64,000 nt of DNA from contig CAYOYV010000005.1 of assembly GCA_964408285.1 (NCBI GenBank), positions 1-64,000 of the forward strand. The letters run 5' to 3'. The DNA is from an uncultured Nitrososphaerota archaeon (GTDB lineage: Archaea > Thermoproteota > EX4484-205 > JAAOZO01). The position numbers and the translations under genes are program-made. A model generated the notes under the pieces. It saw only the letters and a list, made by a program, of their open reading frames with translations. It made no database searches and was not told the origin of the DNA. This document shows positions 42,827 through 60,248 of the stretch, piece after piece. The stretch's first letter is position 1. The number at the start of each line of letters is the position of its first letter.

Positions 42827-43108
42827 TCATAGCCAATCCTCCGATGTGTCTTATATCCATTGGGCGCGCCGAGTGGAATGGAAGACCGCTCGCCTTTCTC
42901 TAGCATGGCAGACATCTTGCAGGACCTACCCCCCCAAATCGAAATCTAGCGACTTCTCCTCAAGACATGCTGAAGCGCGTCTTTCTGGCCTGTTGAACCG
43001 AAATAAACGATATTCGCAGATTCGGGGCTGATTCTGCCGAAATTGGGAGGAATGAGGTCCAGAAAAGGCGCGATATGATTATAGTGAAAGTCCAGCCCCG
43101 GTCAATCA

Positions 43109-43732
43109 ATGAATGCGAGGGGCCTGTGGGCGGCGCTTGTGATTTCAATTCTGGTTGGAGGCTCGATCGTGAGATATTCGGTCGGCCAGGATGAATCAGG
43201 AGCTGAGGACGAAGAAACATTGCCGATTGGTCTTTTGATTCACGCTCAGATCAAGGAATTGATCGCTGAACGTTTGGTCCGTATCCATGAGCTGATAATG
43301 GACCACAAGTTGGAGAAGGCGGAACAGAACGAGGAGAAGCTTCAGTTGATACTCCAATTCCACGAAATGATAAGGGATAGGAACATGATGCTCAAGCAGG
43401 AACTCGAAGACCTCAGGCGCAGATTCGAAAATGGCGAGATAACACAAGAGGAATACAGGATGGAAATGGAGAGACTGAAGTCAGAATTCCGGGAACAGAA
43501 GGGCAGTTTCCTGCATCTGGGCCAGCAGCTCAAGGCACTGATGGACACGCTCAAGGATGGCGGAGGAAATCTCGGACAGCAGATCTCTGCAGTAAACAAG
43601 GAGATTCACGAGCAGATGGCCGCAATCAGAGATGAAATGAAGGAAGCAGAGAAGGCAGCGAAAGAACAGGAAGCAAAGGGCAAGGGCCATGACAACGACA
43701 ACAATAGCAACAACAACCGAGGAGGAAGGTAA
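43109..43732 (+). CDS. Secreted or membrane-anchored coiled-coil protein of unknown function
   Basis: N-terminal hydrophobic signal, E/K/Q/M-rich heptads, LRRRFENGEITQEEY (SHOCT-like) motif, low-complexity N/G tail. Confidence 0.75.
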   Translation: MNARGLWAALVISILVGGSIVRYSVGQDESGAEDEETLPIGLLIHAQIKELIAERLVRIHELIMDHKLEKAEQNEEKLQLILQFHEMIRDRNMMLKQELEDLRRRFENGEITQEEYRMEMERLKSEFREQKGSFLHLGQQLKALMDTLKDGGGNLGQQISAVNKEIHEQMAAIRDEMKEAEKAAKEQEAKGKGHDNDNNSNNNRGGR

Positions 43733-43734
43733 AC

Positions 43735-43983
43735 ATGATGAGCCCTGATTTCTTCAAGAAGGCAGGAAGCCTACCGGACGGGGACTTTGCAAAGCTTGCG
43801 AAGTCTTGCATGAATGAATTGCTGGGCGAGTCGATCTCGCTTGCCATAGTATATCACTTGGGTGGTTCTGATGTTCTACACAACCCCAAGGTCTTCGAAA
43901 GCAAGCTCCAAAACACGTTTGGGCCGGGAGCAGACACAATCCTGAACTACATCTATAGAAATCTAGAGACGAAGCAGCCATAG
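43735..43983 (+). CDS. Small helical protein, DUF3227/NitrOD5-like
   Basis: LLGES...AIVYHL.......NP..FE..L...FG.GA..I...I..NL pattern; GGAGGAAGGT SD directly after the upstream gene. Confidence 0.6.
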   Translation: MMSPDFFKKAGSLPDGDFAKLAKSCMNELLGESISLAIVYHLGGSDVLHNPKVFESKLQNTFGPGADTILNYIYRNLETKQP

Positions 43984-44159
43984 GAAGATCGGGGAGATCC
44001 CCGTCACTGCGAGTGATCGTCTGCGCCCCCGGAGGCTAATTCCTTTCGCCCAAGAGGGGGTGTGTGCAAAATTATTAGAAAATCGCACGCAATCGAATGA
44101 TTCTTTTGCCAATGCATATAAGGGGATGTTTGTAACAAAAACATCAGGCATCGGGCGCT

Positions 44160-45731
44160 ATGTCAATAGGCGGGAGAAACATCGGGCGCGGATTGGGCCT
44201 TTCCGAAGGCTTTCGTGCCTGCTTGATCTTACTGATATTGCTACAGTTATTGCCCGCCGCAACTGGGGAGTTCCAGGAGCTTGGAACAACCATAAAGATT
44301 CAACTGCACAGAGATGGAACAGCCAGATGGACATTCCTCAAGAAACTGAATCTCACAGATGAAGATCAAGTCGAGGCATTCGAGCGGTTTGCGGAGGAAC
44401 AGGAACTGAACAGGAGCAATCTAATATCTGAATTCTCTTCAAGATTCGATTCAATCGTTGGCAAGGCTGCCACTCTGACTAACCGCTCGATGAGGGCCTA
44501 CGATTACAATGTTTCCTTCTCGATTTCTCCGATAATCACCGGAGGAAGCATTGGGCTGATAGAGTATTCCTTCAGCTGGGAAGGATTTGCGGTGAAGACA
44601 GATAGCAGATTAGTAATAGGCGACGTCTTCGAAGGTGGTTTCTATCTCTACGACGGCGACAGATTGATCGTGAGTTATCCCTCCGATTATTCAGTGTCCA
44701 GCGTAGTCCCTTCGCCAGACCAAGCAACATCAACTGAAATCACATGGTTTGGAAGGAGGATCTTCGAGGCTGGAAGACCCTCGGTAGAGCTGAGAAGCAG
44801 AATCGTCAATGTGACCCTGTATCCGACCAACGAAGAAGTCAACGTCGGGCACCCGATGTCAGTCTTGGGGAGGATAACTCCTGCATATAGACTGAGTCTC
44901 TCGATCGTCTATCTCAGGCCGAATGGTACCAGCTTCGAGAGATTAGTAACTAGCTCACTCGATGGCACTTTCAATGACACGACACAGGCGGACCAAGAGG
45001 GAACCTACAAGATACTTGCTAGATGGATTGGAAGTGAACAACTCAACCCCGCTGAGAGCAACATCGTGACGGTCAAGACCGTTGCGGCGCACGCGCCCAC
45101 AATCACCAATGTGACGATCCTCCTGCACCTTTCAACAGACAGAGCGGAGGTCGGCCAATCTCTGACAATCACTGGTAAGGTGATTCCGGCCTTGGTGCTG
45201 AATCTCACCCTGACTTCTCTCAGGCCCGGAGGATCGATGTCTGAGGTCTATCTAAGAACACATGCGAACGGAACATTCGAGCACGAGATGAAGGTGGACC
45301 AGGAAGGAAATTATTCATTCATCGTTAATTGGAACGGAAACGAATCGGTTAATCCTGCTCAAAGCAATCCCGTGACCGCCGTAGCGTACCAGACGTTTTC
45401 CGGCATTATCATGTCTCATTGGATAGAGATAGCTTTGGTGAGCCTCATTGCAGTTCCTGGGGCGTATTTCGCATGGAGAAGCATAAATATGTCAAGGAAG
45501 ATCGAAGGCGAGATCCCCCCGGACGTAAGGGAACGGGATGAGGCAATTGTTCTGTCAATACTCAAGTCAAAAGGTGGGAGTCTTCCGCAATCAGAAATAA
45601 AGAGGCACACTCGCTTCTCCAAGGCAAAGACGTCCTTCATTCTCAAGTCCCTCCAAGACAAGGGTCATATTTGGAAGGAGAAATGGGGAAGGGAATTCAT
45701 TGTACATCTGAAGGCGGAGGCCGATCGCTAG
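44160..45731 (+). CDS. Membrane-anchored regulator: signal peptide, extracellular domain, two Ig-like repeats, TM helix, C-terminal winged HTH
   Basis: DG.A.W, F.W.GFA, IGDVFEGGFYL, PSPD; two repeats of about 95 aa (RP.G..., DQEG.Y....W.G....NPA.SN.V); TM IALVSLIAVPGAYFAW; DE..VL..L...GG...QS.I......SKAKTS..L..L...G.I...K.GRE. Confidence 0.8.
   Translation: MSIGGRNIGRGLGLSEGFRACLILLILLQLLPAATGEFQELGTTIKIQLHRDGTARWTFLKKLNLTDEDQVEAFERFAEEQELNRSNLISEFSSRFDSIVGKAATLTNRSMRAYDYNVSFSISPIITGGSIGLIEYSFSWEGFAVKTDSRLVIGDVFEGGFYLYDGDRLIVSYPSDYSVSSVVPSPDQATSTEITWFGRRIFEAGRPSVELRSRIVNVTLYPTNEEVNVGHPMSVLGRITPAYRLSLSIVYLRPNGTSFERLVTSSLDGTFNDTTQADQEGTYKILARWIGSEQLNPAESNIVTVKTVAAHAPTITNVTILLHLSTDRAEVGQSLTITGKVIPALVLNLTLTSLRPGGSMSEVYLRTHANGTFEHEMKVDQEGNYSFIVNWNGNESVNPAQSNPVTAVAYQTFSGIIMSHWIEIALVSLIAVPGAYFAWRSINMSRKIEGEIPPDVRERDEAIVLSILKSKGGSLPQSEIKRHTRFSKAKTSFILKSLQDKGHIWKEKWGREFIVHLKAEADR
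44805..45385 (+). repeat. Two diverged tandem Ig-like protein repeats inside the membrane regulator
   Basis: DNA copies are recognisable: CAATGTGAC at both starts, TCTCAGGCC in both, GGACCAAGAGGGAA vs GGACCAGGAAGGAA, GCTGAGAGCAA vs GCTCAAAGCAA. Confidence 0.7.
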
Positions 45732-59438: not shown

Positions 59439-60248
59439 TTAGAGATATGTCTTATGCACCATGGACCTGAGGAATCGGATTGTCTCGGCAAGGACAACCT
59501 CAGAGCAAGGCGCTTGAAGGATCTCAGCGGAAAGGTACTGGTCATATCGGACCCTATTCAATGCCCTGAGTAACTGGAGGAACGGGATGTGTCCCTTGCC
59601 TGGGGCATTTCTATTGCTATCTGCTATGTGGACATGCTTGAGAAGATTGCCCGCCATAGCTATCGCCCCAGGCATCGATGGTTCCTCTATGTTCATATGA
59701 AACGAATCGAGTAGGATGCCCACATCTCTGAGCTCATTTTTCCTGATGAATGAAGCGGCTTCCGCTGCAGTGTTAAGGAACGGACTTTCATATCTGTTCA
59801 TCGGTTCCAGCACTGCCCTCAATCCCTTCAATTGCTGCAAGGATTTCCCCAGCGCCCTTTGGCTAGAAGCTTTGCCAGGCTGGCCCTTGATGGAACCTAC
59901 TATGACAGGACAATCGAAAGCTTCCGCCAATTTGGAGAAATTCAAAACACGAGCGACAGCTTTCTGCCTTATCGATTCAGATGGAGAACTCAACGAAAGG
60001 CCCTCCATAGCAGCTAGGCCGGTTCCTATTGCAGCTAGAGTCATTTCATATCTTGAGACTAAGCTTTCAAGAATCCTGGGATTGGCATCATCACTTCGCC
60101 TAAGCAGCAACTCGAATCCATTGTATCCCAATCTACTTAGCACCCGAACAGTAGTTTCCAGTGACCCGCAGAACGAGAATGGTACATGGGCGACGGGGCA
60201 TACAGACGCAGAAACCTTTGGGCCAGATGAAGGAGCGCGCTCTCTCAT
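59439..60248 (-). CDS. iolO: 5-keto-L-gluconate epimerase (xylose-isomerase-like TIM barrel)
   Basis: AIGTG....GLSL, IVGSIKG, LEPMNRYE, LLDSFHMNIEE, HVHIADSNR.APG.GH, SAEI; lies between iolN and iolM. Confidence 0.78.
   Translation of the reverse strand: MRERAPSSGPKVSASVCPVAHVPFSFCGSLETTVRVLSRLGYNGFELLLRRSDDANPRILESLVSRYEMTLAAIGTGLAAMEGLSLSSPSESIRQKAVARVLNFSKLAEAFDCPVIVGSIKGQPGKASSQRALGKSLQQLKGLRAVLEPMNRYESPFLNTAAEAASFIRKNELRDVGILLDSFHMNIEEPSMPGAIAMAGNLLKHVHIADSNRNAPGKGHIPFLQLLRALNRVRYDQYLSAEILQAPCSEVVLAETIRFLRSMVHKTYL

Follow-up and report, generated by a model that had tools for sequence, protein, structure and literature searches.

A candidate archaeal module that pairs a secreted helical protein with a transmembrane winged-helix protein and a TGAAC direct repeat

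Could three adjacent genes of an uncultured archaeon form a path from the cell surface to its promoters and, if so, which of them take part and on which DNA would they act? The question is raised by a locus within the first 64,000 nucleotides (nt) of contig CAYOYV010000005.1 from an uncultured Nitrososphaerota archaeon (assembly GCA_964408285.1; this whole stretch is called the window below). The locus holds three co-oriented open reading frames (ORFs), here named A (207 residues), B (82 residues) and C (523 residues). A preliminary description, made from the sequence alone, had read them as one signalling cassette; in the ORF list all three exist on the strand and at the coordinates that it gave (Table 1). 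In our judgement it is moderately probable that A and C are a conserved archaeal module, in which C, a single-pass transmembrane regulator, is tied to a secreted partner, A, and acts on TGAAC sites.

Protein C carries two confident domain matches. The N-terminal one, to DUF7345 (PF24036), spans the full model (1–132) with an E-value of 1.1e-25 and 90.7 bits (cut-off 27.5; 94.3 bits in the genome search), and includes the GDVFEGGFYL stretch at residues 154–163. The C-terminal match, to DUF7343 (PF24034), has an E-value of 4.3e-14 and 52.6 bits (cut-off 27.6; 56.6 bits in the genome search). It is accompanied by weaker matches to MarR_2 (E = 0.0025) and MarR, and the closest solved relative of this winged helix-turn-helix (wHTH) is 3lfk, a MarR-like protein of Thermoplasma (E = 0.004). 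The topologies of A, B and C were derived from Kyte–Doolittle hydropathy in 19-residue windows at a threshold of 1.5. C has two hydrophobic stretches, one N-terminal behind basic residues (windows starting at residues 11–21) and one further along (windows starting at 412–424). Between them, at residues 64–394, lie 12 of the 13 N-X-S/T sequons; the remaining one is at residue 443. Domain matches and hydropathy thus agree with the arrangement of signal peptide, ectodomain, transmembrane helix and cytoplasmic MarR-type wHTH that had been read from the sequence. The wHTH is the best-conserved part of C in the family alignment (A1), and it is conserved across lineages too.

The stretch between the DUF7345 domain and the membrane is less constant. 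The Ig-like match of C, to Big_3_5 (PF16640), falls in two stretches and reaches 29.3 bits, below the cut-off of 35.5; PF16640 is also assigned to C in a precomputed domain list. Most C relatives have one such repeat and some have none, with the extra copy present in C and in P0005 (alignment A1).

A model of the DUF7345 domain, built from 51 sequences, is predicted with high confidence (predicted local distance difference test, pLDDT, 96.8; predicted TM-score, pTM, 0.90) and consists of two strands, two long helices and a β-rich part. The top Foldseek E-value belongs to the FMO protein, at a TM-score of 0.30; Foldseek TM-scores were low overall. FMO is also the top match in VIA-align (Z = 9.2, root-mean-square deviation 6.2, 137 residues aligned), followed by ribophorin I (7.8), lpg2210 (7.7), LppM (7.4) and then the N-domains of M1/M61 peptidases. 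These Z values lie within the stated background of the tool, and we therefore name no fold for the domain. CsmR of Haloferax was set aside as a family member; in the part of its description at hand, it is a 13 kDa soluble protein of a different family. A literature search found no paper naming DUF7345, DUF7343, DUF4897, DUF7096 or DUF5667.

Protein A has a single hydrophobic stretch, at its N-terminus (windows starting at residues 3–8), and no second one. Its AlphaFold model is a long helical hairpin formed by residues 40–107 and 113–192 (mean pLDDT 77.6). The FENGEITQEEY motif sits within a match to SHOCT (PF09851) at residues 98–123, which scores 26.1 bits against a gathering cut-off of 27; relatives of A score 21.9 and 16.3 bits. 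The SHOCT-like motif of A is internal, at the turn of the modelled hairpin, and not C-terminal. Hydropathy, SHOCT match and hairpin model are all in line with the earlier picture of a signal-peptide protein that is nearly all coiled coil and ends in an N/G-rich tail. The kinship to CpxP/Spy that had been considered for A found no support, with no LTXXQ-type family among the seven families listed for A at E ≤ 1, and a Foldseek search with the A model gave no match at E ≤ 0.001. The loci collected below encode 60 non-redundant A-like proteins.

Is the A–C pairing particular to this locus? Conservation was surveyed in 41 related genomes and by alignment-based scans, which yielded 80 genome loci and 80 metagenome loci. 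A search of genome contigs with the single C sequence found no relative, so that an alignment query was needed. The loci were made non-redundant at 90% identity, and 91 had enough flank for linkage to A to be judged. DUF7345 is present in 23 of the 41 related genomes, and in 20 of the 25 loci of these genomes an A-like ORF adjoins the C-like gene (phmmer), 19 times directly upstream on the same strand and once downstream. Of the 91 evaluable loci, 40 have an A-like gene no more than 1.5 kb from C. On the strand of C it is upstream in 31 loci and downstream in five, and on the opposite strand it is downstream in three and upstream in one; for one of the 40 the computed gap is impossible, owing to a second C-like gene in that locus. 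The linked loci span Brockarchaeota-like metagenome-assembled genomes (MAGs), Bathyarchaeia, Theionarchaea, Thermococci, Methanocellales and others. The C family itself is found in 10 or more named archaeal groups, among them Halobacteria, Methanoperedens and Thermoproteota MAGs. Of the relatives that carry a name, those closest to C (33–36% identity) come from MAGs labelled Candidatus Brockarchaeota or Thermoproteota.

C homologues are preceded by different exported helical proteins in different lineages. In 17 loci of the Methanoperedens type and of Methanoregula, the co-oriented upstream gene encodes a secreted helical DUF5667 protein instead of A. Homology between A and these partners was considered and rejected (hhalign probability 0.3%). 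Most Halobacteria have no A-like neighbour of the C homologue. In Natrinema and Natronorubrum, a secreted protein of 545–717 residues is encoded by a gene that shares 4 nt with a second DUF7345 gene, a short one, and the L053 protein of this group (545 residues) matches DUF7096 (E = 3.7e-8). This arrangement, found in three of the 80 genome loci, is the haloarchaeal pairing that the preliminary description had mentioned. The halobacterial DUF7096 proteins differ from A in having extra Ig-like parts and acidic tails. A itself has no match to DUF7096 (PF23379) at E ≤ 1 and a Thermococci relative reaches 21.2 bits (cut-off 27). The A family profile aligns with the N-terminal region of L053 over 108 columns that include the G-D/E-I-x-x-x-x-Y turn (hhalign probability 85.8%, E = 5.3e-6).

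Some loci show further variation in the content of the neighbourhood. In a sister genus (G001, G003, G005), one C paralogue (L018/L020/L027) has the wHTH but has neither a nearby A nor an upstream repeat, and another (L017/L026) ends past the transmembrane helix, with A directly upstream and the repeat before A. An uncultured Thermococci contig (L050:4980–7462) carries C, A and a second C-like gene in that order, the last encoding 237 residues without a wHTH. In two of the closest relatives (L115 and L116, 2881–3933, minus strand), a 350-residue ORF divergent from A–C has a weak match to the C profile (E = 1.6e-15). Four haloarchaeal loci and one from Archaeoglobaceae (L057, L060, L097, L104, L105) have, as judged by eye, an apparent proteasome α subunit gene directly upstream of C on the same strand.

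What might A do beside C? The preliminary description had suggested modelling the sensor domain together with the coiled-coil protein, and such a model predicts that they touch. The complex of A (residues 36–190) with the DUF7345 domain scores 0.90 in three runs, and the best of three controls 0.01. At least 97% of the contacts agree between runs, and pLDDT values of the partner are at least 86. The mark is one that 58 of 80 solved complexes and two of 110 mismatched pairs reach, a calibration that holds only roughly here because we supplied our own alignments. The predicted interface consists of C residues 156–164, which belong to the invariant motif, together with the two helices of the domain, and of A residues 39–70 and 112–122. 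It thereby joins the most conserved part of each protein, on the A side its conserved first helix. These models predict that A binds the DUF7345 ectodomain of C.

What might C do on the other side of the membrane? On reading the upstream regions, we found TGAAC half-sites at 10-bp (base pair) spacing. We define the repeat as TGAAC-N5-TGAAC with at most one mismatch and counted it in the 250 nt upstream of non-redundant A-type genes, where it occurs in 33 of 55 regions. It is similarly frequent ahead of the genes for the DUF5667 partners (10/17) and rare upstream of other genes in the same loci (2/572) and in random windows searched on both strands (30/1113); no partner-less C gene has it (0/55). 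In the 33 A-type regions all sites are in the sense of the gene and 19–150 nt before its start, and arrays of three to five half-sites are common. In the window, positions 42994–43008, before gene A, are the sole match to the repeat 15-mer at up to two mismatches. Two dimer sites on the minus strand of the window, at 59681 and 59786, lie within a coding region and are taken as chance.

Since the repeat accompanies C across two unrelated partner families, it follows C and not the partner family. The simplest reading of this association is that the wHTH of C binds the repeat, and C would then regulate transcription from the membrane, as the conserved repeat upstream of the operon suggests. Whether this wHTH is a DNA binder or, alternatively, purely a protein-interaction module had been raised before; the conserved upstream repeat fits sequence-specific binding better. 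Co-variation between recognition helix and motif gave no signal, because the helix is similar in Halobacteria whose C genes lack an upstream repeat.

The repeat also identifies candidate target genes. A position weight matrix built from 62 sites matches the complete genome (1.82 Mb) at 15 places with 14 bits or more, and the site upstream of A ranks second among them. The top match is a triple half-site at C7:38757–38788 (G000, outside the window), 91–101 nt before a minus-strand gene (C7:37491–38666). The 391-residue product is secreted, as judged by its signal peptide, and combines two Ig-like repeats with a helical part, where a FIMAH match falls just below the cut-off, and with a tail rich in K and G. 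In G007 and G009 a homologue (37% identity, E = 3e-27) is encoded upstream of a C paralogue. Across the 41 related genomes, a triple half-site with at most one mismatch is found 49 times, against five times for the reversed control, and 44 of the 49 matches fall in the 23 DUF7345 genomes, counts in which the genomes are kin and overlapping arrays are scored more than once.

In one Brockarchaeota-like genus (g6), the genes that follow triple repeats include A, a conserved protein of 205–229 residues without a Pfam match (L202–L204, L210–L212, L214, L222), a T2SSF pilus-platform gene (L207, L217), a V4R-domain gene (L213) and proteins of 258–262 residues with an N-terminal transmembrane helix (L208, L209, L223). 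G027, a 100% complete genome in which DUF7345 was not found, contains a perfect and a near-perfect triple repeat about 400 nt apart (C14:1494–1518 and 1901–1925; L196, L216), with no ORF of at least 60 residues downstream of them in the stretch examined.

The middle gene of the locus behaves differently. B has no hydrophobic stretch by hydropathy, no Pfam match at E ≤ 1 and a single NCBIfam match far under its cut-off. Its family is real, with 41 cluster representatives at E ≤ 0.001 and a domain of about 65 residues. The preliminary description had compared B to NitrOD5/DUF3227 domains, an assignment that is not supported: B itself matches neither NitrOD model, and the family matches are all weak (NitrOD2, PF18550, in 8 of 39 members, best E = 0.0038; NitrOD5, PF11537, in 5 of 39, best E = 0.019; P0011 reaches 15.3 bits against NitrOD2, cut-off 25). 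The domain is fused behind Response_reg in 2 of the 39 members (P0039, P0043) and behind a transglutaminase-like core in one, and in two complete genomes of the same phylum without DUF7345, G032 and G039, a B-like gene follows immediately on a stand-alone REC gene. NitrOD domains are described, in the part of the source at hand, as a ‘Death domain-like’ family whose members are mostly stand-alone and sometimes REC-fused (Galperin et al. 2018, PMC5847659). The B family shares this pattern with the NitrOD2 and NitrOD5 output domains of thaumarchaeal response regulators, as far as that source describes them, but none of its members reaches a Pfam cut-off and the host genome has no REC domain over the cut-off. 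If B signals in this host, it therefore needs another protein, and the neighbouring C is a candidate.

No other C locus has a B-like ORF: jackhmmer found only B itself, and a hidden Markov model (HMM) search of 194 loci gave matches only in its own genome and at unlinked places. In the four closest loci (49–51% identity), A and C are 85–106 nt apart with nothing between them. The proposal that the gene trio is a conserved unit thus stands for the A–C pair, in the 40 linked loci, and fails for its third member. Judged by these sequence comparisons, B is an accessory inserted in this lineage only, outside the core module.

How could the pieces work together? Under the reading that we favour, the DUF7345 domain and the Ig-like spacers of C would face outward, with the MarR-like wHTH about 18 residues inside the membrane. 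A would be exported and would bind DUF7345 with its SHOCT-like turn and the conserved first helix. The wHTH, held at the membrane, would bind TGAAC half-sites repeated every 10 bp, a period that puts all sites on one face of the DNA. The partner gene and a few further genes, whose products are secreted or surface proteins, would have such sites approximately 60–70 bp ahead of their TATA boxes. Through them the module would control its own partner, and the resulting feedback loop would report on envelope state. Activation is likelier than repression, given the location of the sites upstream of the TATA box, and likeness to archaeal activators such as EarA, as characterized in the part of the record at hand, suggests the same sign. 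Under activation, A may be a feedback inhibitor or a stabilizer of the sensor. Domain content, hydropathy-based topology, gene linkage and motif enrichment come from computation and the A–C contact from a structure model; we infer C as the repeat-binding protein, and likewise the sign of regulation and the signal. A wider interpretation, which we offer tentatively and at less than even weight, is an ancient envelope-to-gene circuit in which a membrane-held regulator on one-face TGAAC arrays is gated by a secreted protein that it controls. Partners would have been swapped (A/DUF7096, DUF5667, Ig-helical), with sensor, wHTH and operator kept, and the regulon would comprise surface proteins and, in certain lineages, also genes for pilus assembly.

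Several observations weigh against the reading that we favour. The repeat is absent from 22 of the 55 A-upstream regions and from every partner-less C gene, most of these from Halobacteria, despite a similar wHTH. A motif shared between the region upstream of A and the B–C intergenic region (43984–44159), which the preliminary description had led one to look for, is not present; the repeat occurs only upstream of A. An A-like gene is missing from the vicinity of C in 51 of the 91 evaluable loci, and the A-adjacent paralogues L017 and L026 are without a wHTH, so that A also pairs with a form that does not bind DNA. Nor are the related genomes independent of one another, since a single genus accounts for 16 of the 23 that have DUF7345. 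The linker from membrane to wHTH is short. Besides the roughness of the calibration, the two interface stretches of A are far apart on the straight hairpin of the monomer model, and A would have to bend to make the predicted contact.

Some of these points would be accommodated if the repeat were the site of another, unlinked factor for surface-protein genes, with A–C an envelope complex whose wHTH has a different role such as DNA tethering or protein binding. The bare partner-less C genes and the truncated A-linked paralogues fit this idea, as do the triple repeats of g6 before genes unlinked to C (T2SSF, V4R and the 205–229-residue family) and the perfect triple repeats of G027, which lacks DUF7345. 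We nevertheless consider it unlikely. The repeat occurs with C across two partner families and across phyla, so the factor would need to have been co-inherited with C everywhere; the concentration of triple sites in DUF7345 genomes and the conservation of the wHTH above all other parts of C also speak against it. The short linker raises a different alternative, in which a signal leads to clipping of the ectodomain, after which an intramembrane protease frees the ~80-residue wHTH, with A shielding the ectodomain in the manner of ToxS/TcpH. A is indeed predicted to cover a conserved face of the ectodomain, and 16 loci (L028–L042, L046, L076; e.g. L032:1319–2296) carry a gene for an M48/HtpX-type peptidase about 940 nt upstream of A–C in the same orientation. 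However, 14 of these 16 loci come from a closely related Brockarchaeota-like set and may reflect plain synteny. The peptidase is not retained as a module member, as it is unlinked in the host genome, where each of the three M48 genes is on a different contig from A–C. In the conserved neighbourhood we found neither a site-2 protease nor a rhomboid gene, and the one-face 10-bp phasing suits a tethered array at least equally. Release by proteolysis is quite improbable in our view.

The arrangement of the locus itself might instead point to a single cassette of A, B and C in which B serves the sensor as output or adaptor. B starts 2 nt past the stop codon of A, behind a GGAGG stretch, and we infer that the two genes may be translationally coupled. 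The A–B–C order is real DNA, since contigs from three other sediment metagenomes bridge the A–B or the B–C junction. B also belongs to a family of output-type domains, with its REC fusions and REC-adjacent genes, and needs a partner other than REC in this host. Against these features stand the lack of a B counterpart in any other C locus, the direct A–C succession in the closest relatives and the occurrence of B homologues in genomes without DUF7345 (G032, G039). We regard a three-gene cassette as very doubtful.

The genes that flank A–B–C are unrelated housekeeping genes (upstream, on the minus strand, those for RNase HII and a phosphoribosyltransferase; downstream, one for an esterase), and C is single-copy in the host assembly (1.82 Mb, 93.7% complete). 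The position of the TATA-like box before A suggests a leaderless mRNA. A 14-nt stretch with an ATATAAG core is found at 44109–44122 before C and, inverted and with 13 of 14 letters identical, at 42850–42863 before the minus-strand phosphoribosyltransferase gene. As a regulatory motif shared by A and C this match was rejected, because it precedes C and an oppositely oriented gene; it is probably a shared promoter core. The sediment contigs from other samples also differ at two places, with a 6-nt in-frame insertion at 43675, where A has its low-complexity tail, in 2 of 4 runs and one base fewer at 44026, between B and C, in 3 of 4 runs.

Table 1. Positions of genes, protein parts and putative control elements of the locus in the window
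Feature	Position	Strand	Description
Operator-like direct repeat TGAAC-N5-TAAAC	42994–43008	+	~70 nt upstream of the TATA-like box of A
TATA-like box of A	43077–43086	+	23–32 nt before ATG; read from the sequence, putative promoter element
Gene A	43109–43732	+	Signal peptide or N-terminal anchor, long helical hairpin, SHOCT-like tip motif, N/G-rich tail
GGAGG-containing stretch	43721–43729	+	6–14 nt before ATG of B
Gene B	43735–43983	+	Small cytoplasmic domain, REC-associated family; accessory to this locus only
GC-rich palindrome	43991–44002		Directly after stop of B
TATA-like box before C	44114–44123	+	37–46 nt before ATG; putative
Inverted repeat, 7-nt arms and 7-nt spacer	44125–44145		Between TATA-like box and start of C
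Gene C	44160–45731	+	Predicted single-pass transmembrane transcription regulator
C residues 1–35, basic N-terminus and hydrophobic signal peptide	44160–44264	+	Hydropathy; putative
C residues 46–177, DUF7345 ectodomain with invariant G-D-x-F-x-G-G motif	44295–44690	+	Pfam, model
C residues ~214–410, two Ig-like repeats	44799–45389	+	Sub-cut-off Big_3_5, alignment
C residues ~412–442, transmembrane helix then basic residues	45393–45485	+	Hydropathy
C residues 460–517, MarR-like wHTH (DUF7343)	45537–45710	+	Pfam, conservation

How does the module compare with known systems? ToxR–ToxS, TcpP–TcpH and CadC of Gammaproteobacteria combine a membrane-tethered wHTH with an outer sensor and a co-encoded outer partner, and ToxR uses direct-repeat sites phased by approximately 10 bp. 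C shares the tethered wHTH, the outer sensor, the co-encoded outer partner and the phased repeats with them. In contrast to ToxR and CadC, C is inverted, with the sensor N-terminal behind a signal peptide and the wHTH C-terminal, and its wHTH is MarR-like and not OmpR-like, with no Trans_reg_C match at E ≤ 1. A is an exported helical hairpin, unlike ToxS and TcpH, which are membrane-anchored β proteins, and the archaeal genes have no sequence relation to the bacterial ones. CpxP, a helical exported protein, is made under control of the Cpx pathway, which it is proposed to modulate by binding the outer domain of CpxA. The likeness here is an exported helical protein that would be controlled by the pathway and is proposed to modulate the outer domain of the sensor; A, however, lacks CpxP/Spy homology, and C is a one-component regulator and not a histidine kinase.

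Among archaea, a survey of transmembrane transcription regulators counted 1,384 of them, approximately four per genome and most of them single-pass (Demey et al. 2023, PMC10269533). As far as the accessible part of that survey defines this class, C belongs to it by its DNA-binding domain (DUF7343, MarR-like) and by its transmembrane region (hydropathy). In the same part we found no DUF7345 or DUF7343 member named and no secreted partner or binding site described. ArnR and ArnR1 of Sulfolobus, like C, are archaeal transmembrane helix-turn-helix (HTH) proteins, and activate the archaellum promoter. In the portion of the account at hand (PMC13286277), their HTH is N-terminal, with transmembrane helices further along and, for ArnR, no large ectodomain, whereas C has a signal peptide, an outer part of about 375 residues and a C-terminal wHTH. 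The general kind of protein, a transmembrane regulator, is thus already known. The novelty lies in the conserved partner and the interface predicted for it, together with the operator and a set of candidate target genes.

Few signalling paths from the archaeal surface to promoters are understood, and archaeal transmembrane regulators, though counted in genomes, have seldom been assigned a ligand, partner or binding site. For the A–C family there are now three testable predictions: a partner with its interface, a 10-bp phased operator and a small set of target genes. These can be tested with short purified domains and synthetic DNA, and need no cultured host. If they are true, the A–C family would provide a handle on the regulation of surface proteins, and possibly of pili, in uncultured archaea.

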